From assembly GCA_049322955.1 (NCBI GenBank), contig JBMOPU010000012.1, positions 886,186 to 950,185 on the forward strand: a DNA stretch of 64,000 nucleotides, written 5' to 3'. A program made the position numbers and the translations under genes. Positions 1-63,344 of this stretch are shown piece after piece. Below the pieces are notes generated by a model. It worked only from the letters and a program-made list of their open reading frames with translations. It did no database searches and was not told the origin of the DNA. This DNA is from Patescibacteria group bacterium. Lineage in GTDB: Bacteria > Patescibacteriota > Microgenomatia > UBA10105 > UBA927. Numbering within the stretch: the stretch's first letter is position 1; each line of letters opens with the position of its first letter.

Positions 1-656
1 GGTCGTGGACAAAATATTAAATAGAATATTATCGCTGTTGCGACGGTAAGAATAACGCCTCCATACAAGGGTGAACTAAATCCTAATCCTCCGTTAAAGA
101 AAACAGTGATTAACGCAATAGAAATTGCAGAAGGGAGAATTGAGCCATGACCTTCTAATATAGGCAGGATATATTTCATAAATAACGGCAGAGCGACATA
201 CACAGAAAAAGTAGTTGCGGCACCAAGCTTCCATAGCTCTAATAAAAAATAATTAATTCCGTAAAAAAAAGCTGCAATGAGGGGAAAATATCGATATGGA
301 AAAAGTTTATTAATTGATCGTGCAAATAAATAAATCGAAAGTAGTATCGCAAAAAACCAGAAGATAAAAGTTAAACGTTGAGCGTCGGTTATAGATAATC
401 CTAAATAGCTACCGAAGGCAAGAACGGTGTGAATGAATAATGAGCCAAAATGCATTGAGGTTTCTTGACCAAGACTATCGACATGTGTCCAGGCAAAAAA
501 ACGATTGAGATAGGTACTCTGTATGTTAATCGGATAAGCCGCGTCATTTCCCGTTACATATTGCCCCGGACCGATCCAAATAAGAGGAATTAAACTGACA
601 ATGAACAGGAGAAATAGGTCTACAAAGAGAGGAGAATTTTTAAAAACTCTACTCAT
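1..656 (-). CDS. polytopic membrane protein, N-terminal portion; the gene runs off the window start (GT-C-like, uncharacterised)
   Basis: I translated the minus strand by hand from ATG at 656..654 down to position 3 and found no stop (MSRVFKNSPLFVDLFLLFIVSLIPLIWIGPGQYVTGNDAAYP...). There are several hydrophobic helices. The ORF is absent from the ORF track because its stop lies outside the window. Its ATG overlaps the stop of the 653..1279 gene as ATGA. Confidence 0.5.
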   Translation of the reverse strand, partial: MSRVFKNSPLFVDLFLLFIVSLIPLIWIGPGQYVTGNDAAYPINIQSTYLNRFFAWTHVDSLGQETSMHFGSLFIHTVLAFGSYLGLSITDAQRLTFIFWFFAILLSIYLFARSINKLFPYRYFPLIAAFFYGINYFLLELWKLGAATTFSVYVALPLFMKYILPILEGHGSILPSAISIALITVFFNGGLGFSSPLYGGVILTVATAIIFYLIFCPR

Positions 657-1279
657 ACTTTTTTAACCGCAAATAAATCAAAGCATATGGATGGAACGCG
701 AAAAAAAATAACTTCCGAAATAAGCGAAATGAAGCCCCAAAAAAAATACGGTTTATGTCTGATACCCGCATGCTCCGTTCGTAATATTTTTAACCCTCTA
801 AGACCGTATACGACATATCCTAATTTAGTCAAATCACTAATTACCCAACCTGATTTATGAACCTGATACGGATTACCGTCGTACGCTTCTTGTTCATAAA
901 AACCATTTGGTGTTAATAGAATAATTTTTTTTCTGGCTATTTTCTCCATGGATTTAATCATTTTGATTGCCTCGCTCTTTTCAAGATGCTCGATGACATC
1001 AATTGATACAACCGCATCAAAACTCTTATTTTTATAATAATTTCCTAATCTACGTATATCCCCTAACTTATAAGAGTCGTGAAGCTTTCTTTTTTTACTT
1101 AGCTGCAGAGTTTTAGGATATATTTCGATGCCTTCACTTATAAATGTTTTACGAATATGCCCTATTGCGGAATTATATCCGCACCCCACATCCAAAACAG
1201 TTTTACAACCTCGCAGATGCCATTCAAGGCATTTAAAGAAAAAAATATTTTGAATATAGACGATAAAATTACGCAGCAT
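653..1279 (-). CDS. class I SAM-dependent methyltransferase
   Basis: Motif I VLDVGCGYN and a D-acidic motif II (AVVSIDVIEH) fit the Methyltransf_11/23 type. Length 208 aa. Confidence 0.75.
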   Translation of the reverse strand: MLRNFIVYIQNIFFFKCLEWHLRGCKTVLDVGCGYNSAIGHIRKTFISEGIEIYPKTLQLSKKRKLHDSYKLGDIRRLGNYYKNKSFDAVVSIDVIEHLEKSEAIKMIKSMEKIARKKIILLTPNGFYEQEAYDGNPYQVHKSGWVISDLTKLGYVVYGLRGLKILRTEHAGIRHKPYFFWGFISLISEVIFFRVPSICFDLFAVKKV

Positions 1280-2543
1280 AATTGCTCATGATGAAAAAAG
1301 CATTGGCGAATGTTCTTTCCCAGGTCGCATTCTTTGCATAATCATATGCACGACTTCTCATTTGTATATAACGTTTTCTATCAGATAGCAATGAAATCAC
1401 GGCGTTGCTGAACTCTCTAATGGTATCATTAACAACGAGGGCACCGCCATACTCAGCTACTTCTTTGCCTAACGGGGGGACTTTTGAGGAGATAACGGGT
1501 AGTCCGGCCGCACAGTACGCACGAATTTTACCAGCATCGGCATAAAACCTTATTGAACCTGGAAAAGATCGGTAGGGCGCAACTCCAAGCGCGCATTCAC
1601 GAAGCAAACTTGCCATTTTCGCTCCATCGGGTACATATCCGTAAAATTTAATATTTTTTTCTAAGTGAAGTTCTGCGACTAGTGATTGAAGTACGGGCAA
1701 TCGCTCCCCACCACCTATAATCCGCAACGTCGCTGTAGGGATTGCTTTTCGGATCTTTTGCATTGCGCGAATGATAAGATCTGGGCCATTCTCTTCACCC
1801 AAGGTCCCCATATAAACTAAGGCATGCTTTTTAATTTTAGTAATTTTTAAGGATTGAATTTGTGTAGCTAATAGACCGTTCGGAACATGAATGACCGGAG
1901 CTGATCTTACTGCGTTAAGCCCTGCAGAAATACGTGCCGGCTGCATAGCTTTCGAGACATCCCATATGTAATCCGAATGCATAGCCGCAAACCGATCAAG
2001 AACTAGATAAACCCGGTTAAAAAGTTTGTTGGCATACCGGTTTGGAGAATAATCCGATACGTAGTAGACGACCGTCTTCACCCTGCCGATGAAACGTAGG
2101 AGAATGCCCGCGATTGCATTGACGCTCTCAAGACCGATAAAGTAGTCAAAGCGGGTACTATCCCGAAATGCCCAATCGATCACCGACAGGAAATCCCGTA
2201 TCTTGAACGGCACCTGGGTGGCGTTGCTGTTGGTGAGCCGTAAAAACGGCGAAAGTATTCCGTACCACCAACCCATTTTATGAGAAATATATTTTTTGTT
2301 TCCGTCGTTGTATTCCTCGATTTTGTACGATATATCCTCTTCGCCCGGAACCAGCTGATCGAGTAAGACTAATTTTTTCACCCGGGGAAGCAAAAAATCA
2401 CGGAGCGGCTCGACGCTTCCGTTGGTCGGCATTCGTTTGCCGTTAGACCAGAGGGAAAAGGTCGCAAAAAAAACGGTACTGTCGGGAGAAAGGGTAAAGT
2501 TACGTACGTTTTTCATGCTGGACCCGAAGTTTTGCTTCTTCAA
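1269..2543 (-). CDS. glycosyltransferase family 4 (GT-B, Glycos_transf_1)
   Basis: C-terminal GT4 signature: VYMGTLGEENGPDLIIRAMQKI ... LRIIGGGERLPVLQSLV ... KFYGYVPD. Confidence 0.8.
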   Translation of the reverse strand: MKKQNFGSSMKNVRNFTLSPDSTVFFATFSLWSNGKRMPTNGSVEPLRDFLLPRVKKLVLLDQLVPGEEDISYKIEEYNDGNKKYISHKMGWWYGILSPFLRLTNSNATQVPFKIRDFLSVIDWAFRDSTRFDYFIGLESVNAIAGILLRFIGRVKTVVYYVSDYSPNRYANKLFNRVYLVLDRFAAMHSDYIWDVSKAMQPARISAGLNAVRSAPVIHVPNGLLATQIQSLKITKIKKHALVYMGTLGEENGPDLIIRAMQKIRKAIPTATLRIIGGGERLPVLQSLVAELHLEKNIKFYGYVPDGAKMASLLRECALGVAPYRSFPGSIRFYADAGKIRAYCAAGLPVISSKVPPLGKEVAEYGGALVVNDTIREFSNAVISLLSDRKRYIQMRSRAYDYAKNATWERTFANAFFIMSNYAA

Positions 2544-3324
2544 CCATCGCGGCTATCCCCTCCCGCAACTCGATTGAGGGAAGCCAGCCGGGAACCCTGC
2601 CGCAGTTGGGTGAAGCGATAGGATCGTGTCCCTTTTTGGTACCAGGAATCACCTTCGCGTTTGTCATGTCGGCGATCAAATTGGCAACATCAATGATACG
2701 TACCCATTCGTAACTGCTGGCGTCATAGACGGTTCGTCGCGGCTTTTTTTCGTTGAGCGCCATATAGAATGCGTTGGATAAGTCGGTAATATGTGTGAAC
2801 TGCCGCCATTCCTCGCCGTCGGTCATCATGGTGATCTTTTTTGTTTTTAGAGCCTGGTAGATAAAATCTGAGATCACGTGACTTTTGATATCCTCCCCTT
2901 CCATATAACCGTAGGCATTCCAGACCCGAACACAGACGCCGTTTAACAACCCCGTCCATACTTCTCCTAAGCGCTTGGTCACACCGTAGACCGTGTCCAC
3001 TTCCTCGGACAACTGGCTGGAAACAAACAAAAAGGGTTTTTTTGCCTTCTCCACCTGATCAAAAACATTTTTCATCAGGGCAAGATTCCAATCGAGCTGA
3101 TTTTTCTGAAGCTTCGGCACATAAAGATACTTACTCCCGCCGACATCCCACGCCAAAAAATAGACTTTATCAACTTTCGCCAGCGGGAGCTTGGCAAACC
3201 GCGCATCTTCCTTTTTTCCTCGCTTCACATCGAATCGTATTACCTTTTCGCCTTTCGCCTCCAAAAATCGGCAAAACGGCGTGCCGATAAATCCATCCGA
3301 ACCGATAACGAGATTGGTCTGCAT
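2500..3324 (-). CDS. NAD(P)-dependent sugar-nucleotide epimerase/reductase (short SDR)
   Basis: N-terminal Rossmann motif VIGSDGFIGTPF and a YxxxK catalytic motif (YGVTK). Length 274 aa. It sits directly downstream of the GME-like gene. Confidence 0.65.
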   Translation of the reverse strand: MQTNLVIGSDGFIGTPFCRFLEAKGEKVIRFDVKRGKKEDARFAKLPLAKVDKVYFLAWDVGGSKYLYVPKLQKNQLDWNLALMKNVFDQVEKAKKPFLFVSSQLSEEVDTVYGVTKRLGEVWTGLLNGVCVRVWNAYGYMEGEDIKSHVISDFIYQALKTKKITMMTDGEEWRQFTHITDLSNAFYMALNEKKPRRTVYDASSYEWVRIIDVANLIADMTNAKVIPGTKKGHDPIASPNCGRVPGWLPSIELREGIAAMVEEAKLRVQHEKRT

Positions 3325-3332
3325 ACAAGGAA

Positions 3333-4328
3333 TTATTTATCTTTGCGGTTATGACGCACCTGTTCGTTGATCCATACGTAGGTCTGGGCGAGACCGTCAT
3401 AGAGCTTGGTCGAAGGTGCCCAGCCGAGCTTCTTTTTGATGAGGCGATTATCAGATGATCTCCCGCGAACACCTAACGGTCCTTTAATGTGTTTAATCTT
3501 TAACTTTTTGCCGGCGATCTTCATCACCATTTCGGCCAGTTCATTAATACTCACCATTTCTTCGGATCCGATGTTGACCGGACCTTCAAAATCACTGTCC
3601 ATGAGCTTGCGTACTCCGTTTAAACACTCGTCGATATACAGGTATGACCGCGTCTGTTTCCCGTCCCCCCACATTTCGATGGTGCCGCCGTCTTTTGCCT
3701 GCGCAACCTTCCGACACATGGCGGCGGGTGATTTTTCCTTTCCGTTATTCCAACTTCCCTCGGGACCGAATATGTTATGGAATCGCGCGATGTGCACTTC
3801 CATACCGTAGTTACGCTTATACGCAAGATACATCCGTTCGCCGAAGATTTTCTCCCACCCGTATTCACTATCGGGTGCGGCGGGATATGCGGAAGATTCC
3901 TCGCAATTGGGGTTATTGGGATCCATCTGATTCCGTTCCGGATATATGCAGGCCGATGAGGAGAAAAAGATTTTCTTTATTTTGGCAAGTCTTCCGTAAT
4001 GCAGTGCATTGAGATTTATTTGTGCCGAATTATGCATGACGTCGGCATCATGATCTCCCGTAAAGATATATCCTGCGCCCCCCATATCGGCCGCCAATTG
4101 ATACACCTCATCAAACGGCAAGTTAAAGACTTTCTGACAAAATTTCTGATCACGAAGATCGCCGAGCAGGAACTCGTCAGCAGGACTTTTGCTGTATTCG
4201 TGACGTTTGATGTCTGCTCCCCGCACCCAATAGCCTTCAGCCTTCAGTCGCTTTACCATATGACCGCCGATAAAGCCTCCTGCACCGCACACTAACGCTA
4301 TTTTATGATTTCGTGATATTTTTTTCAT
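3333..4328 (-). CDS. GDP-mannose 3,5-epimerase-like enzyme (GME family, extended SDR)
   Basis: Rossmann motif VCGAGGFIGGH. Conserved blocks match plant GME as I recall it: LAADMGGAGYI, FSSSACIYPE, YGWEK (YxxxK), RFHNIFGPEGSW, GKEKSPAAMCRK, MWGDGKQTRSY, IDECLNGV, PVNIGSEEMVSINELAEMV, GVRGRSSDNRLIKKKLGWAP. Confidence 0.8.
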   Translation of the reverse strand: MKKISRNHKIALVCGAGGFIGGHMVKRLKAEGYWVRGADIKRHEYSKSPADEFLLGDLRDQKFCQKVFNLPFDEVYQLAADMGGAGYIFTGDHDADVMHNSAQINLNALHYGRLAKIKKIFFSSSACIYPERNQMDPNNPNCEESSAYPAAPDSEYGWEKIFGERMYLAYKRNYGMEVHIARFHNIFGPEGSWNNGKEKSPAAMCRKVAQAKDGGTIEMWGDGKQTRSYLYIDECLNGVRKLMDSDFEGPVNIGSEEMVSINELAEMVMKIAGKKLKIKHIKGPLGVRGRSSDNRLIKKKLGWAPSTKLYDGLAQTYVWINEQVRHNRKDK

Positions 4329-4344
4329 AGACTATAAAAGTAGG

Positions 4345-6360
4345 TTACTCTCGCGAATAATTATTTATTTTGATTATTATACATATTCCGGCAAAAATTA
4401 CCCATGCCAGGATGAGCAGGGGGCCTACAACGGATTGAGGAACATATCTTACAGTTGCAACTCCATGAACTCCTTTCGGAATCGTATATTCCTGCAAACC
4501 GTCGGGTGTTCGCTTTGGTTTCAATTCGATATCTTGCACTGAAAGCATCCAATACGGATTGTATGTCTCTGAAAAAATGATTGAAGCATCGCTATCACGC
4601 TCTGGTAGTACTAATGAGTATTCAGCTGGGGATATCATCGATACCGAAATTGATTGATTTGGCTGATCCACAAAAAAAGCATGGCCAAACGATATCGATG
4701 TACGCCAAATTGAAATACCGTCTATACGATCGTATCTTTCATAACGACGTGTTTCGTCAATGGCATTAATTATTGACTGCCGAGCATTATTATCCGGTTT
4801 TCCGTCTTTTACAAAAAGTTCATGTTCTACATCACTCGGAACAACAATATACTTGACTCCGTATCGTGCCAGCTGTTTATCATTTCCCTCTTCGGTGATC
4901 CAGGGAATAAACGCAGAGGTGCTGGCAATAGACAGTGTCTCTAATGAGATTGCTCGCTTGTTATCATCATAGTAACCGTATCTACTTCTGGTTGGAACCC
5001 ACAGAACCCGTGCAAAACCGTTATCCTCTCTCAGAAAATCCTTTAGTAAGACATATTCATTGGGTACTTTACCTGGAACTAATGTGCCGCGTATCCCGCC
5101 GGCATAAAAATCTCTGAAAGCGAACAACAGTAGACTCAACAATAAAGCAAAAAACCCCGTGCGAAGGTATATAAACAGTTTTTTATGTTTGATTGCGCGC
5201 ATAACAGCATCATTACTACGTTCTAACGTGTAGGCAATAAGCACCGTATAGGAGATTGAAATGAGAACATAAAATTTTGTCGGATCACGAAACATAACAA
5301 ATCCGGGAACATGCACGAACATCCACTCATAAAGAGATCCGAAAGGTTGATTAACCCCTTTTGCTAAAAATGCTCCAATGAGTCCCATAAAAGCGAAGAA
5401 CAAAATTTTTATTTTTTTCTCACGATCTTCCTTACCAAGGAACAACAGGGAACTGAAGGCAAGAATGGGAAATACAAGAAATTCGGGTCGTAAAAATGAC
5501 ATTTTTCCGAAGATATTTTCCGGCCAATTCGGATGAAGCAATGACATGGTATGAGATTGGTCTGCGAAACTGAAAAAGCGAAGCGCATCGGAAGATAAAT
5601 ATACCGGGCTCAACAAGGTATCGATGGGCGTTCGGTAAATAATTAACGGGAGGATCCAATACGCATGCAACCCGAAAATTATGAGGCCGGCACCGGTCCC
5701 GACTAACATGAGCCTAATATATACAACTTTCTTTACTCCTTTATTCAAAAAAACAAATACAATATAGGGCACAATTGCCATTACGGTGATATAAAAAATT
5801 CGCGCGTCAAACATAAGCTGAATGGCACCTATGACACCGACTAAACAGGTGGTGCGTACCAACTTGATAGATTCTCTATGGAGCAGATCCACAAGATGCA
5901 TGCTGAGATGAATAACAAGTGGTGCTATCGCAATTGCCCAAATCACTCCCATTTGTCCTCCTGAGAGAACCATAATAAAGTGCGTATTTATCACATACAG
6001 AATTCCCAGGAAAGAGAAGCGCGCCCTGACTAGGGACTGGGTAAGCCTGATGCTTGAAAATAATGCGATGATGATAAGCGGGATAAACCACACGATTCTC
6101 TCCGTAAATTCCCACGGAAGAGACATATTGGAAGCTATCCGGGCGGTGATAATGTACCACGTATCAAGAGGGGCCAATATCATTTTCCCCCCGCCCAATC
6201 CGTTTCCAAAATAGGTTGACCATGAAACCACCCATGGGTTCATGGAGCTGGAAAGCTCGACAAATCTGTATCCCCAATCGCCTGATGAAAGCGTACCGCT
6301 GATTCCCCATCGAACAAATATCGGGAGCAGTAACGTCATTGACAAGAATACGAAGATCAT
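4345..6360 (-). CDS. large polytopic membrane protein with YfhO-type C-terminal module (GT-C-like)
   Basis: Many TM helices followed by a C-terminal soluble domain ending YNPYWMLSVQD...IPKGVHGVATVRYVPQS and a final TM anchor. This is the same module seen in the YfhO-like proteins of the window. Sequence is AT-rich. Confidence 0.5.
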   Translation of the reverse strand: MIFVFLSMTLLLPIFVRWGISGTLSSGDWGYRFVELSSSMNPWVVSWSTYFGNGLGGGKMILAPLDTWYIITARIASNMSLPWEFTERIVWFIPLIIIALFSSIRLTQSLVRARFSFLGILYVINTHFIMVLSGGQMGVIWAIAIAPLVIHLSMHLVDLLHRESIKLVRTTCLVGVIGAIQLMFDARIFYITVMAIVPYIVFVFLNKGVKKVVYIRLMLVGTGAGLIIFGLHAYWILPLIIYRTPIDTLLSPVYLSSDALRFFSFADQSHTMSLLHPNWPENIFGKMSFLRPEFLVFPILAFSSLLFLGKEDREKKIKILFFAFMGLIGAFLAKGVNQPFGSLYEWMFVHVPGFVMFRDPTKFYVLISISYTVLIAYTLERSNDAVMRAIKHKKLFIYLRTGFFALLLSLLLFAFRDFYAGGIRGTLVPGKVPNEYVLLKDFLREDNGFARVLWVPTRSRYGYYDDNKRAISLETLSIASTSAFIPWITEEGNDKQLARYGVKYIVVPSDVEHELFVKDGKPDNNARQSIINAIDETRRYERYDRIDGISIWRTSISFGHAFFVDQPNQSISVSMISPAEYSLVLPERDSDASIIFSETYNPYWMLSVQDIELKPKRTPDGLQEYTIPKGVHGVATVRYVPQSVVGPLLILAWVIFAGICIIIKINNYSRE

Positions 6361-6371
6361 AATTATTTAAG

Positions 6372-7424
6372 CTACGATTGCCCTAGCTTTCGTACAATTT
6401 TTCTCAACGGTGAAATTATTCTTGATAATCTTGCTCTTATACTACTTCCGTTGTATTCCCATATGTACGCGCATAGGGCAAGTGCGATGAAATAATAAGT
6501 CCAAACTGCATACCCTTCGGCGATATCAATTTTGTTGAGTGCCACGTATACGGTCGAAAGCATATACATGGCCAAACCTACGATAAAATAGGCACTTCCG
6601 CCGATATTAAACTTTACGATTACAAAAAATAGAGTGGCAAGCTTAAAATATAGCTCTGCTTCATATCCCATTTCCTGTAGCGGTACATATACTGAACTAT
6701 ATATCCGATACGCAATAAACACTATTAATGTTGCGGTTACATACCTGTTGTTCATTATTTTCCATATCAAATACAACAGTGTCGGCAGAAGATATAAAAG
6801 AATATAGGAATAAAACTCCACGTCCTGTGATAGATTTTCAATTTTTATCTTAAAGTATTTCATAAATGTCTCTAAATCTTTCAAGGGATGTATCTTGTCT
6901 ACACGATATTTTGTTAAAAAGGCGACAGTATCAAAATGCACCTGTATACCTTCCCCTTTCGTATATTCGCTTTCAAGCGTAACGGTGTATCGTATATTTT
7001 TAGATTCAATAATCGTTGGAAATCCTAGAGGGTAAAAATTTCCCCCGTAAAGGACACGCATGTCATAGTGTCCCGTAAATAACAGTTCGCCCGTGTCCTG
7101 ATTCATTAATTTGAAAGTAATTACCCCTTCTGGATCTTCTTTAGGTAACTTGAAACGCAGTGCAATCGTTCCGAGGTTATTCATCTGGGATGTGAAACTG
7201 AACTGCACGGTTCCCGGGTTGGGCAAAGTTACATATTCATTCTCTTCTACATTTTTCTGATGATAAAAATTCAAGGAAAAAAAGCTTGCTCCCGGATAAT
7301 TAACAATCCCGTATAAAAATCCGATAAGCGCCAATATGCACGGAATAATGATCCAGGCAACACTTACCTTTAGAAGATGGTAAAGCTTAAAATATTGTTT
7401 TTTTTCCATGGAAGATTTCTTCAT
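6372..7424 (-). CDS. membrane protein with N-terminal anchor, ~200-aa extracytoplasmic domain and C-terminal TM bundle
   Basis: One TM, then a hydrophilic beta-rich stretch, then 4-5 TM helices. An A8 tract lies at codons 7-9 (coords 7398..7405). Function unknown. Confidence 0.45.
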   Translation of the reverse strand: MKKSSMEKKQYFKLYHLLKVSVAWIIIPCILALIGFLYGIVNYPGASFFSLNFYHQKNVEENEYVTLPNPGTVQFSFTSQMNNLGTIALRFKLPKEDPEGVITFKLMNQDTGELLFTGHYDMRVLYGGNFYPLGFPTIIESKNIRYTVTLESEYTKGEGIQVHFDTVAFLTKYRVDKIHPLKDLETFMKYFKIKIENLSQDVEFYSYILLYLLPTLLYLIWKIMNNRYVTATLIVFIAYRIYSSVYVPLQEMGYEAELYFKLATLFFVIVKFNIGGSAYFIVGLAMYMLSTVYVALNKIDIAEGYAVWTYYFIALALCAYIWEYNGSSIRARLSRIISPLRKIVRKLGQS

Positions 7425-7433
7425 ACACTCCGC

Positions 7434-9668
7434 TTAATTGACACTTTTTCCCTTTTTTTGTACATAGCCAGCGTAAAGTACCAATGCGATAGAGATAATG
7501 TAACCCGTTATGCTTATGAAATTACCTATATTCTGCAGTCGCTTCGGCTCAAAAATTATTTTTAATTTTATGGGCTGGTCGCCACCTTCATATCCCCGTA
7601 TATTTCGCATTTGCGCCGTATCGATCTTCCATGCATTAGCGTAGTCATACACTCTCGTATTCATTCCCGTCATATACGGTATTGTATATTTGCCCTGTTT
7701 GTCCTCCAGGTAGATCCGCCAGGTTCGGTAATATGGCTCAAGCAATACCATATATTGGACTTTATCCGCATTATTTATTGTGACAGTATATTCCCCTTCA
7801 TTATTCTTAACATACGAAAAATTATCGTTAAGTTGAACTTCAGAGAGTGAAGCGGTGAGATAAAGGACATCAGTAATATATGCGGGATTGATTTCATATA
7901 ATTCATATCGATCGCCGAAACTGGCAATAACGTTTCCGGTCATATGATTGATAAATTCATCATCCTGTAGCGTATCCAATTTATTCGAACCCCATAACCA
8001 GAGCGCATAGTTTGCAGAAGATGCAGGAAGCCGCTGTTTGTTTACGATAATGTATCGAATACCCAACTCCTGAAATATTTTTCCCACTGCTTCATAATTC
8101 CTTTCTTTTATATTCTTGATAATTGTTTGGGCAATCCCCGGACGGGACGGTATATCGAAGCTTAGCTCTCCCGTGTAATCTATTTTATTTGTTAATGGGG
8201 TAATAATTGACGGTCCGCTATAGAAATGATTCGGTAGTTTTCCGTCTTCAATATAGATATATGATGGAAAAGTAAGAGGTAACCATACGAAATGCGCTCC
8301 CGTATCCATATTTTTTAGATAACGAACCATATCATTAAAATCCTGATTCAAAGTTCCTGAAATTTTTGTGGAAAACTGCTCACTTCTATGTTGTGGAAAT
8401 AGAAAGTTAAATCCTGAATAGACGGTGAGCACAATAATTGCGCATGCAAAAAATACGGCCAATTTCTTGTGCAGGTTTCCGATAATCCAAAGACTCCATG
8501 AGAGAAGGAATGCGTACTGAAATGCTAATGGTAGCGCAAATTTATCATACGAGGTTTTGAACATTGCGAATAATGGCACATATGAGTTGAGCAGTAAAAA
8601 TAATTTAAGGCTCCAAACATCTATATTTGGAGTAAATAAAATTACGGTAAATAAAAATGAAAAAATGCTCAATAAATAGATGGTTCTCCTATTATTTCTC
8701 TTTAGTCGGGCAAAGAGTATGCCTCCCAAAAGCACCGGCCAAAGATAGAGTGAATTCAGTGGATTAAATACGATATTCATTCCCCATCCTGTTCGTTCCT
8801 GTTGAAAAAACTGCGCTAAAATTGGATTGAGATGTGAGATCGCCGCAATATAATTTGCGTTCGCACGCGAGGCCGCCTTCAACGAATCAAATGATAACGC
8901 GGCAGATGAGCCAGCTTCAGTAATCAATTGAGAAGCAATTAGATGTATTATCCAGTGCGTGTTAAGTACAAGAAATGAGCATAAAAATATTGACGTAATT
9001 TTGATAAACACTAACGGTTTCCTTTTAAATTCTAAAAAAAGCAATGGAAGAACAGAAAAAAAGAATGCCCCATACCATGGAAGAGTTATGAGAGTCGCAC
9101 TTACTGCTGAATATATCAATGCACATAAGACGGGAAGAATATACCGCTCCTCCCGAACAGATATAATAAACAAATAGAGAAGCAACGGACACACGCTAAC
9201 TGCGAAAATAGACATGAGCTCATGGGTGTATAGCGTAGTGATGACAAAATTTGATAATACATAAGATAGTGCTGCGGCTATTTTAAATACCCAGCCGAAT
9301 CCAGATGCATCTGCTTTCAATTTGCCCATCAGAAGATAGAAAAACACAAATCCTGCTGCCAAATTAACTCCGTACATGGCAAATTGCACATTATGCCAGG
9401 GAATAAGCGATATTATCCAGATAAATATATAAAAGGGAGTTAAAAATGCTGGCGATGCATAAACACCGTACGTACCGAGTCTGTTTTGCGTAATAATGGA
9501 AGATGAATAGTGTTCAAAAAACGGTTTTGGCATAACATAATACAATCGCGTATCATCCCCACCGACATGATATAGTTGACCCCAAAAGAGCAAAGGAATT
9601 AAAAAAAGCGTAACGGCGATGAATGCCACTGCATATTTTGACAGAAAATTAAATATTACTTTTTTCAT
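7434..9668 (-). CDS. large polytopic membrane protein (GT-C-like) with C-terminal extracytoplasmic domain and TM anchor
   Basis: 744 aa. About 430 aa of TM helices with an early loop motif HVGGDDTRLYY, then a ~300-aa soluble domain containing YYRTWRIYLEDKQG, then a terminal TM. Confidence 0.5.
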   Translation of the reverse strand: MKKVIFNFLSKYAVAFIAVTLFLIPLLFWGQLYHVGGDDTRLYYVMPKPFFEHYSSSIITQNRLGTYGVYASPAFLTPFYIFIWIISLIPWHNVQFAMYGVNLAAGFVFFYLLMGKLKADASGFGWVFKIAAALSYVLSNFVITTLYTHELMSIFAVSVCPLLLYLFIISVREERYILPVLCALIYSAVSATLITLPWYGAFFFSVLPLLFLEFKRKPLVFIKITSIFLCSFLVLNTHWIIHLIASQLITEAGSSAALSFDSLKAASRANANYIAAISHLNPILAQFFQQERTGWGMNIVFNPLNSLYLWPVLLGGILFARLKRNNRRTIYLLSIFSFLFTVILFTPNIDVWSLKLFLLLNSYVPLFAMFKTSYDKFALPLAFQYAFLLSWSLWIIGNLHKKLAVFFACAIIVLTVYSGFNFLFPQHRSEQFSTKISGTLNQDFNDMVRYLKNMDTGAHFVWLPLTFPSYIYIEDGKLPNHFYSGPSIITPLTNKIDYTGELSFDIPSRPGIAQTIIKNIKERNYEAVGKIFQELGIRYIIVNKQRLPASSANYALWLWGSNKLDTLQDDEFINHMTGNVIASFGDRYELYEINPAYITDVLYLTASLSEVQLNDNFSYVKNNEGEYTVTINNADKVQYMVLLEPYYRTWRIYLEDKQGKYTIPYMTGMNTRVYDYANAWKIDTAQMRNIRGYEGGDQPIKLKIIFEPKRLQNIGNFISITGYIISIALVLYAGYVQKKGKSVN

Positions 9669-10823
9669 ATGTTCCTGTTAGAGCTGATGCACTTTGGGAA
9701 TGCAAAAGCACGCTTCGCATTAACCCAAAAGCCCAGCAAAGAACTGCTATCCAGACAATATTCCAGGAAAATAGATGCAGCCAATGTATACCGAATTCAT
9801 CTTTATTTCCCAAAAGAAATAATGTCGTAGCAAGCGTATATACAATCAGCCACAACTTTGATTCTGTCCAGGAAAATGCAAGAGGTAATACAAAATATTG
9901 CGCACTTATCCCGGTCGTGGTCGCTAAAAAGATAACCAACGAATGCCCCATGCTCCGCCAACTATCCTTACGCTTAGCCAAATACATGGCAATGAGGACA
10001 TTCACCACTACAGTTGCCGCAGTCAAGGCTATATATATCATACGTACGCCACCTGATGTCCCTCCAACAGAAGACTCCATGGTAAGCGTTTGTGAGTGCG
10101 CAAGCATCCGATAAACTGATGTAAGAAAAAAAGACACACCATATTGTCCCGGTATGCCACCATAAAAAAATACTTGCGTCACTATTTCCCTCCATGCGCT
10201 GACATAAGGAAGGAATGACATGAAAAAAATAATCATTGTCGTGGCAATTCTGAGGAAACCTTTTTTACACCCCAATGACTAAAAAACAGAATAAGAAGAG
10301 GAAAAAGAACGATGTGCTTGGTCAAAAGCGCCATTGTACCGAGCAGCCATGCGATAAACGGTAATTTTTTTTGAAAACTTAGCCAAGAAAGAATAAGAAA
10401 AAGAATGGCAAAATTATCGAATTGCCCGTGCTTAGAAGAAATAATCATCGATATGGGATTAAGAAAGTAGAAGAGAAGCGGGTGAAATATTGAAATCTTC
10501 CTCGTTCGGGCAATGTGTGTTAATACAACTAAGGTAACTACATCAACTACCGACAAAAAAAGTCTGATAAATACTGCAAACGGTACGCTCGGGAATATGT
10601 TAGTGCGTATCTGATCCAAGGTTCCCAATATATAAAACCATACAGGGGTATAATTATACGCGGATTGAGCTGAATATATGTTTTCTCCCTGATGGAAAAT
10701 CTCGACATCTTTAAGATAGTTCGTTATATCGACGTTATATGGCAGTGTGGAGAACCATGCTCGAAGGATAATCCCTGAAAGGAGCAAAATGACATATATA
10801 CCATGAAAGAATTTCGCATTCAT
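9649..10823 (-). pseudogene. polytopic membrane protein split by a +1/-1 frameshift at an A6/T6 tract (pseudogene, phase-off variant or sequencing error)
   Basis: Two overlapping minus-strand ORFs (10233..10823 and 9649..10275) are in different frames and both are all-TM. Shifting at the tract 10261..10266 joins ...FFSHWGVKK to GFLRIATTMIIFF..., giving a continuous ~400-aa membrane protein. Confidence 0.45.
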
Positions 10824-10827
10824 ATGG

Positions 10828-12441
10828 CTATTTTTCCATATATTTACCCACAGTCGATTTTAGAGTTTTGTTGTTCCAGTTTAACTTGACAACCTGCGCA
10901 TCAACAGTCAAAAGCTCTGCATCAAGATAAGATTTTTCTGAAAGATAAAATCTAAAACCGATCTTTCCATGCTCATAATATCCCTCACTCCCCCAATTCC
11001 ATAAATCCTCGGCTTTAAAAAAGCTATCATATCTATATATATTTGAATTAACCACCATAGCCACATATCCGACACCTGAGTAGAGAGGGGGTAAATCTCC
11101 GGTATTTACGATAATTGTTTTTGAACTCGTATACTTGCTGGCTTGTTGCAAGGCTTGCACATAACTTGCCATCGGTCTTGCAATGTTAAGAGCGTGATTG
11201 ATATCTTTATGAAAAAAAATAGTATTTCTAAGAATAATAAATGAGAACACCACATAAATTATAATTGACTTAGAGCTATATTTCTCCAATAAAGATCTAA
11301 CTAGCGCACCAAATAATAAAGATAAGAAAATTGCCGAAATATAATAGTGACGAGATTCAAGTCGTAGACTTGTAGGTAATAAAATATACGGCACTGCTGT
11401 TACTAATACTGAAAGTAAAGTAAAGCGAATAAAGTTTTTATCGATTAATTTCTGAAATAACAAGAACGCACCCATCCCAATTCCAATAACCGGACCAACG
11501 ATATAAAAAGATATAAATTCATTAAAAATATCCGCGTTAAGTATAAAACCATATGGAATAATCTTTGTCGAGAGCACAGTGTTTCCGATAAATTTTCCTA
11601 GGAATACTTTATCGTGATCATTTATGAGTAATGATGCCAGCATGGAAGCAGGCATAACGATTGAATTTTTAATAACATTTTGTAAATCGATGCCGCCAAT
11701 GTGTAGTTCTGAAACATTTTGAAAATAGAGGTAAATACTTCCAAAACGCAAAATCAGATATAAAGATATAAAAATAGCTGAGGTTGTAAATTTTTTGACA
11801 TTTCGAGATATGATAAGTTCATACAATGCAATTATTATCACAGCGACTATTACATCTTCTTTGAACAAAAGACCAACGAAGAGCGATATATATGCAACCG
11901 TAAAACCCCAGGATATTTTTCTTTCATAATTCGCATAGATTAGCAGACCGCTAAGTAACAAGAAGGTTGAAGGTAACCCAACCAACGATGCTGCATACCA
12001 AGTGATAGTTTGACTAGCTTGCGAAAATGTTAAAAAAAATAACGCAGAATAAAAGGATATTACTTTTGTAAAAAAACGTCTCGATAAAAAATACACCAAT
12101 AAAACATTAGCAATAGAGAATATATATGTAAAAATGAAGTATGGAAGCGTGTGTAGTTGAAATTGCTTATAAACGTAATAATAGGTGAACCATGACAGAG
12201 GTACAAAATGATAACTAAATGGTTTTATCAGACAAACGAGCCCGCAATCCCTAACTGATAACACCTTTCCAAAAAGGTACCACTCATCTGCTTGAAAATA
12301 TAATCCTTTAAGAGGTACAAATAAAGCCAACGAAATAAGTATTAAAATGCCAATCAGAAGAATATCTGATTTCAGCATATTTGCTTTTACTCTGCTTGCG
12401 AATTTGGACATATTGACTCGCACCAAGGCATATTTCCGCAT
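10828..12441 (-). CDS. polytopic membrane protein (GT-C-like), uncharacterised
   Basis: 537 aa. About 11 TM helices, then a C-terminal ~150-aa soluble domain. AT-rich. Confidence 0.5.
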   Translation of the reverse strand: MRKYALVRVNMSKFASRVKANMLKSDILLIGILILISLALFVPLKGLYFQADEWYLFGKVLSVRDCGLVCLIKPFSYHFVPLSWFTYYYVYKQFQLHTLPYFIFTYIFSIANVLLVYFLSRRFFTKVISFYSALFFLTFSQASQTITWYAASLVGLPSTFLLLSGLLIYANYERKISWGFTVAYISLFVGLLFKEDVIVAVIIIALYELIISRNVKKFTTSAIFISLYLILRFGSIYLYFQNVSELHIGGIDLQNVIKNSIVMPASMLASLLINDHDKVFLGKFIGNTVLSTKIIPYGFILNADIFNEFISFYIVGPVIGIGMGAFLLFQKLIDKNFIRFTLLSVLVTAVPYILLPTSLRLESRHYYISAIFLSLLFGALVRSLLEKYSSKSIIIYVVFSFIILRNTIFFHKDINHALNIARPMASYVQALQQASKYTSSKTIIVNTGDLPPLYSGVGYVAMVVNSNIYRYDSFFKAEDLWNWGSEGYYEHGKIGFRFYLSEKSYLDAELLTVDAQVVKLNWNNKTLKSTVGKYMEK

Positions 12442-12464
12442 AGTATGTATCAGATTTACTGAGA

Positions 12465-13508
12465 TTATTCATCTATATAATTCTCTACCCCTACGGTCAT
12501 CAGATAGTAATATTTCAAATGAGGATGCCTCATAATTTGAGGCCAAAACTCGTTGTCTGATCGAGTACGAATCGTCTTCTGTATATAGGCACGCTTATTG
12601 AGTGTTTTAGGCAAGATGCTAATATTCCAAAATATAGCTCTGTATATCGCCAACGCTATGCGTCCTTTATTTTTGATAACGCAGAATAATGAGTAAAGCA
12701 TGCATATAAAAAGGTGAATTGGAAGTATAGAGATTAACTTAAATGCTCCTAAATTTTTAATATAAGAGTTTATTCGATTTTTAAAGGAATGGTATTGAAC
12801 GAATGAATTATCCATTTGTCCACTTGTAGCTCCCATCTTGTGATAGACAATTGACGAAGGAACAAAGACAACTTTATAGCCACTCAACCACACCCTATGA
12901 CATAAGTCCGTTTCCTCAAAATAAGCAAAATAGTCCGAATCAAACATTTCACTATTAACAAGTACTGCATCTAAAGTTTTTTTTCGTATCATCAAACACG
13001 CACCTTTAGCCGAGTAAGTAAGTAACTGCTTGTTATAAAATGTTCCGTTTTTCTTTGCGTAACCGTAGTGGTACAGAAAGCCTGTAGGGGTAAGATATGC
13101 GCCCACCGAATCCAAATACCCTGGATTATCCATCATTAACAGCTTACTTTGCGCGGCTCCAATTGCTTTATCTCGTAAAAAAACTCGCACGAGATTACTG
13201 ATACATGTTGATGTAGCCATCGTATCGTTATTTAAAAGGAGGATATATTCTCCATGCGCAGAAGAAAGACCGGCGTTGTTGCCTCCCGCAAAGCCAATAT
13301 TTCTCGAAAGAGAAACGGTTACAACCTCAGGAAATTTTTGCCGGACAAATTCGACTGAACCGTCGTGAGATCCGTTATCAACAAAAATAATCTCAATGTG
13401 TCTATATTGCTGTTTTCTAAGACTATTTATGCATTTTTTGAGGTGATTTTTCCCGTTAAAATTTACTATAATAACTGATACAAGCGGGTGTTTTTCTGTA
13501 TTTTTCAT
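12465..13508 (-). CDS. glycosyltransferase family 2
   Basis: VSVIIVNFNG ... IIFVDNGSHDGS ... and a DxD region. Start moved to MKNTEKHP so the gene overlaps the upstream stop as ATGA. Confidence 0.8.
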   Translation of the reverse strand: MKNTEKHPLVSVIIVNFNGKNHLKKCINSLRKQQYRHIEIIFVDNGSHDGSVEFVRQKFPEVVTVSLSRNIGFAGGNNAGLSSAHGEYILLLNNDTMATSTCISNLVRVFLRDKAIGAAQSKLLMMDNPGYLDSVGAYLTPTGFLYHYGYAKKNGTFYNKQLLTYSAKGACLMIRKKTLDAVLVNSEMFDSDYFAYFEETDLCHRVWLSGYKVVFVPSSIVYHKMGATSGQMDNSFVQYHSFKNRINSYIKNLGAFKLISILPIHLFICMLYSLFCVIKNKGRIALAIYRAIFWNISILPKTLNKRAYIQKTIRTRSDNEFWPQIMRHPHLKYYYLMTVGVENYIDE

Positions 13509-14383
13509 TTCTTTTGTAATGCAACCATAATATTGGATGCCCAAAATTTGGAGGATATCTGTTTTTCATCAATATCTTCAATTATTTTTTCTAGCATTGA
13601 AATTCGCAGAAGTGATAAAAATGCCCCGAAAAGTTTTACAAGGTGTCCCGTGTAATATACCGCTTTAACTGCATATCTTTTTCCGAATAATGACACAATG
13701 TCTTCGAGTGAGTAATGACGGTAATGCCCCACTTTTCTATCAGAATACATGTAAATGGGAATGAACAACGGGAAGACATATCGGAAAGCAAGAGGGACAC
13801 CGACAATAACTATTCCAAATTTTTTTATGTATTCATTTAATTGAACTACTACCTTTTTATCATTTTGCAGGTGTTCTATAACATGCAGAAGAATTGTCAT
13901 TTGTACGCTTCTTTTTTTTAGCCGTAATTTTGTGATGTCTGAGGCTACAAACAGAATACGATTCTGTAATTTTTTTATCTTTGCGACTGCTCTCGCATGA
14001 AAAAGCCCTTCAATAGAAAGATCGCACGCGATGACCGTGTATCCTAACTCCGCAAGAGCAATGGAAACATATCCCTGACCACATGCCGCATCCAGAATTA
14101 TTGATTTTTTGTTCGTAGGCAGGAAAGGCTGTAACCGTCGAATATATCTATTCCGCCATTCAAATTGCGTATTTGCATAGTCATTTACATACTCTTTGTC
14201 ATAATAGTTTTTTTGATGTTCATTATGTGTGTCCTCAAACACCCTGTCATCCAGAAAATTTATCACGCCGTTGGTGACTGCATACCGCTTTTTGCAACGT
14301 CCACAAATGATTGCTTTTTTACCTTGCCCTGATAGGGCGCCGCCGCAAGACGGACAGCAAATTATTCTTAAAAGATTATTCAT
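13505..14383 (-). CDS. SAM-dependent methyltransferase with N-terminal Trm112-like zinc ribbon
   Basis: CPSCGG...CGRCKK ribbon, then ILDAACGQGYVSIALAELGYTVIACD (motif I) and a DVIEH-type motif II. Confidence 0.75.
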   Translation of the reverse strand: MNNLLRIICCPSCGGALSGQGKKAIICGRCKKRYAVTNGVINFLDDRVFEDTHNEHQKNYYDKEYVNDYANTQFEWRNRYIRRLQPFLPTNKKSIILDAACGQGYVSIALAELGYTVIACDLSIEGLFHARAVAKIKKLQNRILFVASDITKLRLKKRSVQMTILLHVIEHLQNDKKVVVQLNEYIKKFGIVIVGVPLAFRYVFPLFIPIYMYSDRKVGHYRHYSLEDIVSLFGKRYAVKAVYYTGHLVKLFGAFLSLLRISMLEKIIEDIDEKQISSKFWASNIMVALQKK

Positions 14384-15540
14384 AGTGCCTTCGCAAACTC
14401 ATACTCATATATTTTATATATATCGTTCTTTTCTGCATATAGTCTGCTCTGCGTACATATGTGTGTGTGCTTTTTTTTGTCTTTATAGAGATCTAAGACG
14501 CCCTTGGCAAATGAGCATGGGTCTCCCGGTACTACGATCCCTGTGCCGTATTTGATAACGCGTTTGGAGAAACTATAGCCCTTTGTCACAATGGTAGGTA
14601 TACCCGCAGCCGCATAAATTTGAATCTTCATAGGATCTGTGGTGGTAAGAAGTGAAGAGTCATCCTTCCTATAGGGCGCCAAACCGCAGAGGTATGAACC
14701 GAGTTTGGAAGCATACGTAAATATATCCTGATACCCATGTAATCGAACATAATTTTCCAGTGAAAATTTTTTTACTTTATTCAGTATGATTGCTTCTTCT
14801 GATCCTACTCCGATAATATCCAGTCTGAATGACGGCTCATATTTATGTATTTCTTTGAGTATGTCCGGTAATAGATCAGCCCCGTTCATGCGATTAAGCG
14901 TTCCTATGAAAACAAGTGTCGGCGTTTCTAACTTTTTATGCCTCCTGGGAAAAAGCGCCACCGGAACATTTGCGGGAATCACCCGTATGGGTTTTTGCTC
15001 CTTCATCCTTCTGCTTATTTGAATATCGTTCGATAATGCCCAATTTATATCACTGTTTGCATACGCAAAGCCGTCCAGCAAACGATACAAAACGTTCATT
15101 TTCGCTCCGCTAAAACGTTTTTTTGCAATACCGTGCGAATAAAAAATAACTCTTTTACATCCCCCGATACGACGGAAAAATATCGCTATGAGAGCAAGAA
15201 GAGAATTTTGTGCAATAACGAGGTCAAAAGATTGATGACGCATCCTGAATAACACCCACAGCCCCTGAAGGAAATGCAGGATATAGGTTAACGACGGGTG
15301 TCCGACGTATGTACGAATATTCTTCGTTGCTATCTTCTTGCCATATCTGTACTCATACACCTCGATATGCGTGAGTAACGGAATTTCAGGAAGGGGGAAT
15401 TTAATAGCTGCTACGTATTGTGTTTTATGATCATTCAAATAAAGAGTCAAAAAGTCTTGCATGGCAGTAGTGGCGTAATGGGACAGTAGGAGCACCCGCG
15501 AAGACCTGTATCTCTCTTTGTTGGTATCTTTTTCGTTCAT
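14380..15540 (-). CDS. glycosyltransferase family 4
   Basis: GT-B C-terminal region: VFIGTLNRMNGADLL ... RLDIIGVGSE ... RLHGYQD. A (TG)4 + T8 simple-sequence tract lies near the 3' end (14455..14478). Confidence 0.75.
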   Translation of the reverse strand: MNEKDTNKERYRSSRVLLLSHYATTAMQDFLTLYLNDHKTQYVAAIKFPLPEIPLLTHIEVYEYRYGKKIATKNIRTYVGHPSLTYILHFLQGLWVLFRMRHQSFDLVIAQNSLLALIAIFFRRIGGCKRVIFYSHGIAKKRFSGAKMNVLYRLLDGFAYANSDINWALSNDIQISRRMKEQKPIRVIPANVPVALFPRRHKKLETPTLVFIGTLNRMNGADLLPDILKEIHKYEPSFRLDIIGVGSEEAIILNKVKKFSLENYVRLHGYQDIFTYASKLGSYLCGLAPYRKDDSSLLTTTDPMKIQIYAAAGIPTIVTKGYSFSKRVIKYGTGIVVPGDPCSFAKGVLDLYKDKKKHTHICTQSRLYAEKNDIYKIYEYEFAKAL

Positions 15541-16481
15541 ACATTCTCACACATATGTTTTATTCCCTTGTCGATAGTATATTGCTCCTTAAAGGGTGTA
15601 AGCGTAAGAAATTGTTTGTTTGAATATTTCCGATGAACAGATTGGCTTTCTGGCGGTGAGTACCTTATTTTTGATTTTGAACCTGTAATATCCACAACTT
15701 TTTTGGCCAGTTCGTATAAATTTATCCGTTGTGATCCGATAATGTTCACCGGTTCACCCGTTGCGTGCTTCTCAATAAGAAGCGTTAGTGCCCGTGCAAG
15801 ATCGGTAACGAACATAAATGTTAATTCCTTGCTTTTTGGTGCCGTAATCTTTATCGGCTTATTGGCTTTGGCAAGATGTATGAATGTCGGGATAACTCGT
15901 CCTTTTGCTACATCGTCCCCGGGTCCATATACGTTGCCCGCTCTGGCAATTGCGATGCGAAGATTCTTATCGTGATAATACTTGCCTAAAATTTCTGTAT
16001 ATCTTTTTACCCATGCATACGCGCCGATATCTTCATCAAACCAATAGCCCCGATTAAAACGCTTATCCACCACACTTGATTTTGATATTGCATAGACTTC
16101 TACAGAGCTCATTAAGAGTAGCCGTGATACCCGGTTTATTTTGCATGCATCCAAAATATTCAACGCGATTCTCGTGTTCGTCTGCAAGATTTCATGTGTA
16201 TGCGCCTGCTTATACGCCGTCCCGCCATCTAAGCCTGCGAAATGAAACACAATATCGGTGTTTTTCAGGACGCGAACGGTATTTTCGCGATTATTTAAAT
16301 CAACGACGCAAACTCGTAGATTTTTTTTCCGTACGGCATTAGGTTTCTGTTTTGATCGATGAGACACTAGTGCCGTCACCCGGGCACCATGTTCAGACAA
16401 AAATCGTACAACATGACTTCCGATAAACCCTCCGGCTCCGGTCACGGCAACTTTTTTATTAATCCAAAAGGAGTCACTCAT
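15537..16481 (-). CDS. NAD-dependent epimerase/dehydratase family protein
   Basis: VAVTGAGGFIGSHVV Rossmann motif and YAWVK (YxxxK). 314 aa. Confidence 0.75.
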   Translation of the reverse strand: MSDSFWINKKVAVTGAGGFIGSHVVRFLSEHGARVTALVSHRSKQKPNAVRKKNLRVCVVDLNNRENTVRVLKNTDIVFHFAGLDGGTAYKQAHTHEILQTNTRIALNILDACKINRVSRLLLMSSVEVYAISKSSVVDKRFNRGYWFDEDIGAYAWVKRYTEILGKYYHDKNLRIAIARAGNVYGPGDDVAKGRVIPTFIHLAKANKPIKITAPKSKELTFMFVTDLARALTLLIEKHATGEPVNIIGSQRINLYELAKKVVDITGSKSKIRYSPPESQSVHRKYSNKQFLTLTPFKEQYTIDKGIKHMCENV

Positions 16482-18414: not shown

Positions 18415-18426
18415 AGATAGGCATGA

Positions 18427-19209: not shown

Positions 19210-19221
19210 ACATGCCCCGTA

Positions 19222-20247: not shown

Positions 20248-20259
20248 AACGATCCTCCT

Positions 20260-21051: not shown

Positions 21052-21052
21052 C

Positions 21053-22986: not shown

Positions 22987-22993
22987 CATACGA

Positions 22994-26723: not shown

Positions 26724-26726
26724 AGG

Positions 26727-31183: not shown

Positions 31184-31187
31184 AGTA

Positions 31188-32816: not shown

Positions 32817-32821
32817 GCGTA

Positions 32822-34450: not shown

Positions 34451-34459
34451 ACTCAGTAG

Positions 34460-37346: not shown

Positions 37347-37381
37347 TGTACTAAATCAACTTATGCTTGACCATTGAGGGA

Positions 37382-38893: not shown

Positions 38894-38936
38894 TCTGCTC
38901 GTATTCTTGTTATAATGCCAATAGCCTCGTACCTAT
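38894..38936 (+). promoter_or_regulatory. divergent intergenic region with extended -10 (TGnTATAAT) for the plus-strand block
   Basis: TG at 38908-38909, TATAAT at 38911-38916, about 20 nt upstream of ATG 38937. This is the only strand-switch spacer in the window. Confidence 0.35.
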
Positions 38937-44552: not shown

Positions 44553-44553
44553 T

Positions 44554-46206: not shown

Positions 46207-46217
46207 CACACGGCGGA

Positions 46218-47936: not shown

Positions 47937-47969
47937 ATAAATTCCTTACGCTATCATATCACACGCCCG

Positions 47970-48848: not shown

Positions 48849-48853
48849 AGCGG

Positions 48854-49774: not shown

Positions 49775-49775
49775 A

Positions 49776-52016: not shown

Positions 52017-52019
52017 AGA

Positions 52020-57030: not shown

Positions 57031-57032
57031 GG

Positions 57033-63326: not shown

Positions 63327-63344
63327 ACCCGTACCGCCCTACCG

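Follow-up and report, generated by a model that had tools for sequence, protein, structure and literature searches.

A GDP-mannose 3,5-epimerase homolog and its conserved gene neighbours in a glycosylation locus of a Patescibacteria genome

Relation to described GDP-mannose 3,5-epimerases

The closest described relatives of the protein studied here are the GDP-mannose 3,5-epimerase (GME or GM35E) of Arabidopsis (AtGM35E, 377 aa; PDB 2C54, 2C59, 2C5A and 2C5E) and that of Methylacidiphilum fumariolicum (MfGM35E; UniProt I0K0X9). The latter was the first bacterial GME to be characterised, in 2019; it is 50.5% identical to the Arabidopsis enzyme and was proposed to feed surface-polysaccharide (LPS) synthesis (PMC6678494). 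Further bacterial cases are BlmG, from bleomycin biosynthesis, and the A201A pathway (PMC6678494), in both of which a glycosyltransferase receives its GDP-L-gulose or GDP-L-galactose from a GME-type enzyme (PMC6678494; PMC8787198). The fingerprint of GM35E consists of the triad S143/Y174/K178, the pair C145/K217, which provides the acid and base for the C5 and C3 epimerisations, R306, which acidifies the catalytic Cys, R243, located at the diphosphate, and N203 (Arabidopsis numbering; PMC8787198), and it is accompanied by a glycine motif GxxGxx(G/A) for NAD+ (PMC6678494). GMER has His at the position of K217, which tells the two enzymes apart, and Lys in the role of R306; it needs a 4-keto-6-deoxy substrate and consumes NADPH (PMC8787198).

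We analysed a GME-like gene and its neighbours (Table 1) within a 64-kb window, by which we mean the whole stretch of DNA considered (64,000 nucleotides, part of a 990,597-bp contig). The reading frame of the gene is complete, running from an ATG start to a stop codon over 331 codons, and an identical protein is present at NCBI under no other label than "NAD-dependent epimerase/dehydratase family protein". When the protein was compared with all PDB chains using phmmer, the top matches were the four Arabidopsis GME entries, with 2c59 scoring 343 bits (E 1.6e-101; query residues 5-327 against chain residues 27-345), and the GME of Myrciaria dubia (8sg0) scored 331 bits. The best family other than GME, represented by human UDP-xylose synthase, reached 97.7 bits, and the score thus dropped by approximately 245 bits from GME to every other family. 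A pairwise alignment to the Arabidopsis enzyme gave 52.2% identity across 314 columns.

Table 1. Genes of the GME cassette and the adjoining membrane protein, with positions in the 64-kb window
Feature	Position	Strand	Length	Accession or domain evidence
GDP-mannose 3,5-epimerase (GME/GM35E) ortholog	3333..4328	minus	331 aa	MFZ5535458.1
SDR2, compact nucleotide-sugar SDR	2500..3324	minus	274 aa	MFZ5535457.1; Pfam Epimerase, 70 bits
GT4-family glycosyltransferase, third cassette gene	1269..2543 (public gene call from 2516)	minus	415-424 aa, by start codon	
Class I SAM-dependent methyltransferase (MT), often fourth cassette gene	653..1279	minus	208 aa	Pfam Methyltransf_11/25/31
AftD-like GT-C-fold membrane glycosyltransferase	4345..6360	minus	664-671 aa	predicted fold

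All eight fingerprint residues are present in the query. In the pairwise alignment, S125/Y156/K160 correspond to the Arabidopsis triad and conform to the SDR pattern [ST]...Yx3K, C127/K199 correspond to the Cys/Lys acid-base pair, and R290, R227 and N185 correspond to R306, R243 and N203, respectively; the NAD motif reads G15-A-G-G18-F-I-G21. We extended the comparison to 99 aligned GMEs, comprising 31 with a linked SDR2 gene, 62 without, 5 of undetermined linkage and the plant enzyme, and found the eight positions to be invariant. The features of GM35E that can be read from a sequence, namely similarity, glycine motif, triad, Cys/Lys pair and the Arg and Asn residues, are thus all found in the query. 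The product of the gene is a specific GME homolog, beyond chance or a generic SDR likeness, and the long collinear similarity put forward in the original prediction was borne out, as was the presence of the Cys/Lys pair, which it had named as a check. The same prediction had read GDP-L-galactose/GDP-L-gulose chemistry from the gene: while scores and residues establish the GME identity, the chemistry is what we infer as the best reading, because the protein is a specific homolog in which the GM35E fingerprint, Cys/Lys pair included, is complete. Judged from its sequence, the protein is very probably a canonical GDP-mannose 3,5-epimerase (EC 5.1.3.18) that uses NAD+ and is self-sufficient, and it adds a member to a known and already characterised bacterial enzyme family.

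The putative mechanism is modelled by analogy on the Arabidopsis and Methylacidiphilum enzymes. Tyr156, Lys160 and Ser125, with bound NAD+, would oxidise C4 of GDP-alpha-D-mannose, after which Cys127, acidified by Arg290, and Lys199, acting on opposite faces, would withdraw and return the protons at C5 and C3, and NADH would reduce C4 again as the last step. At equilibrium, the product mixture would be expected to contain both the 5-epimer, GDP-L-gulose, and the 3,5-epimer, GDP-L-galactose.

The query shares with AtGM35E the triad, the Cys/Lys pair, the residues equivalent to Arg306, Arg243 and Asn203 and the extended-SDR architecture, but it lacks the N-terminal (~22 aa) and C-terminal extensions of the plant protein and carries GxxGxxG where the plant enzyme has GxxGxxA. 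Its role would probably be the supply of a glycan precursor in a CPR bacterium, whereas the plant enzyme serves ascorbate or pectin synthesis. MfGM35E, compared through its published description, is like the query a bacterial, self-sufficient enzyme with GxxGxxG and approximately 50% identity to AtGME; however, it comes from another phylum, and the cassette of GME, SDR2, GT4 and MT belongs to the clade of the query. BlmG and the A201A enzyme act in antibiotic gene clusters of actinomycete secondary metabolism, in contrast to the cell-surface glycosylation locus found here, and the step that follows in the A201A pathway is carried out by a GDP-L-galactose pyranose/furanose mutase and not by an SDR, while the next gene of the query locus encodes a compact SDR.

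Prokaryotic GMEs had been described as sporadic, and this did not hold. A homolog search with the query matched at least 8000 proteins, the best 120 clusters all being at least 76% identical to it, and in a scan in which each species was represented by a single genome, 126 genomes encoded a relative. We kept 80 of these GMEs, which are 60-97% identical to the query. Their hosts include Gottesman-, Woese-, Taylor- and Saccharibacteria and Paceibacterota among the CPR, many Acidobacteriaceae, Verrucomicrobiota (with GMEs 68-69% identical to the query), Kiritimatiellales and Lentisphaerota, Crocinitomicaceae and other Bacteroidota, Alphaproteobacteria, Dehalococcoidales and two DPANN-type archaea. 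Bacterial GME copies are common, one of them has been characterised (PMC6678494), and several close homologs of the query are already named GDP-D-mannose 3',5'-epimerase by JGI. At NCBI, the many relatives of the query are labelled only "NAD-dependent epimerase/dehydratase" and NCBIfam holds no GME model, which together constitute an annotation gap; therefore, the annotations probably understate by far how common GDP-L-galactose/GDP-L-gulose chemistry is among DPANN archaea and uncultured bacteria. In the literature we came across no account of GME or GDP-L-galactose from Patescibacteria/CPR and, likewise, no demonstration of L-galactose or L-gulose in a CPR glycan.

The compact SDR and the conserved cassette

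The short SDR gene noted beside the GME is real, and it starts 8 nt past the GME stop codon. SDR2 is not a pseudogene; its family has approximately 847 homologs, mostly 265-286 aa long. The best PDB match by sequence scored only 28.6 bits, but the AF2 model (pLDDT 89.7) shows a nucleotide-sugar SDR fold. Foldseek found no specific structural neighbour for this model, as ~50 different NS-SDR structures tied at ~20% identity, with UXS, TunA, GalE, MoeE5 and GME among the matches. In the family alignment, the invariant residues are G8xxG11xxG14, D32, S103, Y113xxxK117, N136, K147 and R174. Asp32 lies at the end of beta2 and suggests, by SDR rules, the use of NAD rather than NADP, and Asn136 and Arg174 occupy the positions of N185 and R227 of the GME, which are sugar-diphosphate contacts. 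The catalytic Ser and Tyr are 9 residues apart in SDR2 in comparison with 28 in the GME, and the near-invariant S103-Q104-L105 places Gln-Leu where the GME has Ala-Cys.

The 4,6-dehydratases RmlB and Gmd carry a Thr-Asp/Ser-Glu acid/base motif after strand beta5. SDR2 has Ser-Gln-Leu in place of this motif and scored 32.8 bits against the RmlB model of NCBIfam, for which the cut-off is 365. We found no Gmd-like dehydratase in the GME cassette or elsewhere in the 64-kb window: the window has two further SDRs, SDR341, which resembles CDP-tyvelose 2-epimerase (348 bits to 9rl0), and SDR314, a distant relative of GME and UXS, neither of them being a Gmd. With no dehydratase motif in SDR2 and no Gmd in the window, the 6-deoxy route via SDR2, which had been suggested from the position of the gene, found no support and was rejected. 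The most economical reading is that SDR2 would be a simple C4-type oxidoreductase or epimerase, and not a dehydratase, a decarboxylase or a 3,5-epimerase.

The mildly new element of the locus is a conserved cassette, found in Microgenomates-type genomes, in which the GME is followed by the compact SDR and the GT4 and often by a methyltransferase. Among the 80 genome loci, 13 had an SDR2 homolog (56-84% identical) directly 3' of the GME, and all 13 are of CPR/Microgenomates type. A GT4 homolog (50-60% identical) adjoins the GME-SDR2 pair in each of these, and a methyltransferase homolog (38-62% identical) is found in 7 of them as well as in several metagenome loci. The GT4 itself is recognised by Pfam Glycos_transf_1 (75 bits), and its best PDB match is the MshA-like 3c4q (32 bits). 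No such cassette was seen beside the sampled GMEs of Verrucomicrobiota or Acidobacteria. In the metagenome loci, the association depends on the similarity of the SDR: where SDR2 was at least 65% identical and enough sequence was available upstream, the GME was directly upstream in 15 of 15 cases, whereas at 44-64% identity this was seen in only 4 of 52. The distant members adjoin GT2-like genes, FkbM-type and other methyltransferases and Wzx or ABC exporters, and we saw no second sugar-modifying enzyme recurring beside them.

The arrangement suggests that SDR2 may further modify the product of the GME. In such a two-step pathway, the GME would make GDP-L-galactose/GDP-L-gulose, SDR2 would alter it, for example by epimerisation at C4 (or C2) to GDP-L-glucose, GDP-L-allose or a talose-type sugar, and the GT4 would transfer the resulting rarer L-hexose. 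This would extend the GME explanation and is compatible with it, and we regard it as a possibility that is less likely than not. It is favoured by the close spacing of the two genes, by the constant presence of GME upstream of the more similar SDR2 genes and in the 13 genome loci, and by the near-monophyly of the SDR2-linked GMEs, which fall into a clade of 31 linked, 5 unlinked and 1 undetermined sequences. The retention of GxxGxxG, Asp32, S103, Y113, K117, Asn136 and Arg174 and the confident model of a nucleotide-sugar SDR fold are also as expected for an enzyme of this kind. On the other hand, 48 of the 52 loci of distant SDR2 members are polysaccharide loci lacking a GME, so the SDR2 family can act on some other, common nucleotide sugar. 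Within the linked clade, the GME of the closest relative, a sister genome (L002), is 97% identical to the query and yet stands without SDR2, as do four others. L002 has the same upstream GT-C genes and carries UXS-like and GalE-like genes where SDR2, GT4 and MT stand in the query locus; because of this, we consider the GME a self-sufficient module and the SDR2-GT4-MT genes an optional, clade-specific addition. A specialised active site in the linked GMEs was rejected, as no column of the 99-sequence alignment separates them from the unlinked ones.

A more elaborate version of the two-step pathway is a little less likely. It holds that the GME of Microgenomates-type CPR is tied to an undescribed, miniaturised SDR of 274 aa, in which the Ser-Tyr loop has shrunk from ~28 to ~9 residues, and that this enzyme makes a rare GDP-L-hexose from GDP-L-galactose/GDP-L-gulose, which a dedicated GT4 then installs in the envelope, possibly in O-methylated form. 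If true, the GME and the miniaturised SDR would together provide a new route, of two enzymes, to an L-sugar that bacterial glycans are not yet known to contain. With so tightly conserved an SDR downstream, the final sugar could possibly be neither L-galactose nor L-gulose. A review of GM35E sees a need for further GMEs from bacteria and archaea, as well as for enzymes or glycosyltransferases acting on what GMEs make; for biocatalysis, the cassette offers candidates for both.

Product specificity and family assignment

A canonical GME remains our preferred reading of the query also when its specificity is considered. The protein could belong to the GME family and have a shifted specificity, acting mainly as a 5-epimerase towards GDP-L-gulose, in the way proposed for BlmG, or using another GDP-hexose. 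Enzymes of the family do give several epimers, L-gulose, L-galactose and altrose (PMC8787198), in ratios that are not readable from the sequence, and BlmG, 42% identical to AtGME, has been proposed as the source of L-gulose in bleomycin biosynthesis (PMC6678494). However, the catalytic and substrate-contact fingerprint of the query is identical to that of the plant enzyme and does not vary among the 99 homologs, and we consider a shift of this kind improbable.

The Pfam domains of the query, Epimerase and GDP_Man_Dehyd, are common to other nucleotide-sugar SDRs, and these domains, the generic NCBI annotation and the absence of a GME model from NCBIfam are what could be said for a GME-like GDP-L-fucose synthase, GalE, ADP-heptose 6-epimerase or UDP-xylose synthase. 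This reading is hardly credible, as the best NCBIfam match, Fcl, reached 116.5 bits against a curated cut-off of 500, RmlB 71.2 against 365.1 and Gmd 23.1 against 415, GDP-fucose synthase and GalE structures scored at most 87 bits in the PDB search (GalE at most ~85), far below the GMEs, and the base is Lys199 instead of the His of GMER/Fcl/WcaG, with Arg290 instead of Lys acidifying the Cys, although those enzymes, too, are 3,5-epimerising SDRs of GDP-sugars with a catalytic Cys. Neither GalE (70.7 bits, cut-off 262.3) nor ADP-heptose 6-epimerase (66.6 bits, cut-off 274.6), the two families that the original prediction had weighed against a GME, is the best characterised homolog, and a generic SDR, GMER, GalE or heptose epimerase was rejected on the curated cut-offs and the catalytic residues.

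The surrounding glycosylation locus

The genes from ~22.3 kb down to 653 are all on the minus strand, co-directional and separated by tiny gaps or overlapping. The gaps flanking the GME are 16 nt on the upstream and 8 nt on the downstream side, and no terminator-like sites were found between the genes on the coding (minus) strand. Promoter and terminator scans gave results no higher than the shuffled expectation, and neither tRNAs nor Rfam families were detected in the window. Glycosylation genes make up almost the entire 64-kb window. Beyond the genes of Table 1, it encodes seven or more GT-C proteins of PMT_2 type, one GT87 and three YfhO proteins, a set of five PTPS-related membrane proteins that are paralogs of one another, roughly twelve GT2 and six GT4 enzymes, five methyltransferases and one Wzx-type flippase. 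Pfam and NCBIfam scans found no nucleotidyltransferase, and hence no mannose-1-phosphate guanylyltransferase (GDP-mannose pyrophosphorylase), and no phosphomannomutase among ~50 ORFs of the window. These enzymes would supply the substrate GDP-mannose in this reduced genome, and we count their absence from the window as a point against the GME activity.

The base composition varies along the locus. The GC content is 47.7% in the GME, 48.4% in SDR2 and 45.3% in the GT4, and ~50% in the rest of the window, while it is 33-42% in the membrane-protein, GT2 and methyltransferase genes from 4345 to ~16500 and in the methyltransferase of the cassette. The pattern agrees with a conserved sugar-supply cassette set in a glycan-locus backbone that varies and may have been exchanged.

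The source genome is a MAG of Patescibacteria (CPR, Gottesmanbacteria-like). Most likely, the product of the GME would supply an L-hexose to a cell-surface glycan, with the adjacent GT4 serving as a cytoplasmic transferase, the methyltransferase as a possible tailoring enzyme and the AftD-like GT-C protein as one of the many extracytoplasmic glycosyltransferases of the locus. The cells of CPR are ultra-small and host-dependent, and here a large block of a ~1-Mb genome is given to glycosylating the surface; if the glycan contained an L-hexose, the envelope would have a concrete trait that can be tested for.

The membrane protein encoded upstream of the GME, 671 aa in its longer form, gave no Pfam or PDB sequence matches, and the same searches were empty for a 744-aa membrane neighbour; nor did phmmer match the membrane neighbours to the GT-C paralogs of the window. 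For the 671-aa protein, ~10 TM segments were predicted and the AF2 model had a pLDDT of 86.7. A Foldseek search of the PDB with this model returned GT-C proteins as all of its top 11 matches, AftD being the first (E 2.7e-7), followed by AglB, PglB, AftA and ArnT. Homologs 29-35% identical recur in five cassette loci (L004, L005, L008, L009 and L010), and the residues G20-D21 after the first TM helix are invariant in the family. GT-C glycosyltransferases are marked by a polytopic N-terminal membrane domain of GT-C fold and by an Asp that is conserved in the first loop outside the cytoplasm; the protein agrees with this description, and its predicted fold points to an AftD-like enzyme. It shares the predicted fold and the invariant Asp just past the first TM helix with GT-C enzymes such as the arabinofuranosyltransferase AftD of mycobacteria, but it is only ~12% identical to AftD, with a TM-score of ~0.5, and half its size.

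Glycosylation content of the region

Glycosylation genes fill the entire window (1..64000), about 6% of the 0.99-Mb contig, and for a CPR organism with so reduced a genome this outlay is striking. Membrane proteins of the GT-C type number roughly 20 (PMT_2, YfhO, GT87, PTPS-related and AftD-like), accompanied by about 12 GT2 and about 6 GT4 glycosyltransferases, five methyltransferases and one Wzx flippase. The five PTPS-related paralogs resemble one another (phmmer E values of 1e-30 to 1e-80). A separate tandem set is formed by PMT_2 paralogs. The glycan locus reaches outside the window, as the same contig encodes three further genes past the methyltransferase that often accompanies the GME-SDR2-GT4 cassette, that is, the genes for the GDP-mannose 3,5-epimerase homolog (GME), a compact SDR and a GT4 glycosyltransferase.

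One of the membrane proteins, labelled "hypothetical", gave neither a Pfam nor a PDB sequence match but was confidently predicted from its model to be an AftD-like GT-C glycosyltransferase. Its homologs in CPR genomes number more than 1000, none of them carrying an annotation.

Features of the glycan locus (window coordinates unless marked L001, a locus on the window's own contig)
Feature	Coordinates	Strand	Size (aa)	Remark
SDR2, "mini" nucleotide-sugar SDR	2500..3324	-	274	family of ~847 proteins
Membrane protein	4345..6360	-	671	predicted AftD-like GT-C glycosyltransferase
SDR314, nucleotide-sugar SDR	15537..16481	-	314	closest solved relative GME, just 89 bits
SDR341	19222..20247	-	341	strong CDP-tyvelose 2-epimerase homolog
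PTPS_related paralogs (five)	24046..25815, 28000..29715, 38937..40574, 60088..61770, 61734..63326		530-590
PMT_2 paralogs	31188..36094			tandem
Protein with no Pfam match	L001 13673..20996 (shared span)		1154	outside window start
Hexapeptide acetyltransferase	L001 13673..20996 (shared span)			outside window start
Protein with GDSL-lipase domain	L001 13673..20996 (shared span)		>960	outside window start

Nucleotide-sugar SDRs accompanying GME

Among solved structures, SDR341 matched 9rl0 with 348 bits and 1orr with 323 bits; judged by sequence, it is a putative second type of uncommon nucleotide-sugar epimerase within the GME locus. SDR314 carries Ser-Val-Glu where GME has Ser-Ala-Cys. In the family of SDR2, the loop from Ser to Tyr is strongly shortened, and we found no close solved or named relative of the protein, the top PDB sequence match reaching 28.6 bits. 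Members of this family adjoin GME in one clade and elsewhere occur without a GME partner, in polysaccharide loci.

Module exchange and taxonomic spread

The GC content falls to 33-42% in a trough at 653..16500, compared with about 50% elsewhere, which spans genes for membrane proteins, GT2 glycosyltransferases and methyltransferases. Within it, the GME-SDR2-GT4 cassette forms an island of near-genomic composition (45-48% GC). In the nearest relative, L002, GME is 97% identical and the upstream GT-C genes are 96% and 94% identical, while downstream of GME the SDR2-GT4-methyltransferase genes are replaced by UXS-like and GalE-like genes (L002 8001..11239). Modules have thus been exchanged in this part of the locus.

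The record titles of L002, L006, L007, L010, L011, L013 and L014 include several "uncultured Gammaproteobacteria bacterium" MAGs. The GME loci of the MAGs so titled are 72-97% identical to the CPR locus, CPR-type cassette included, and the titles seem to be either placeholders or mistakes. Two archaeal MAGs, one a Pacearchaeota (DPANN) genome and the other an unclassified archaeon (L054 and L076), also encode GME homologs, with 63-65% identity to the query. This suggests either that ultra-small bacteria and archaea have exchanged the gene or that their copies go back to a common source.
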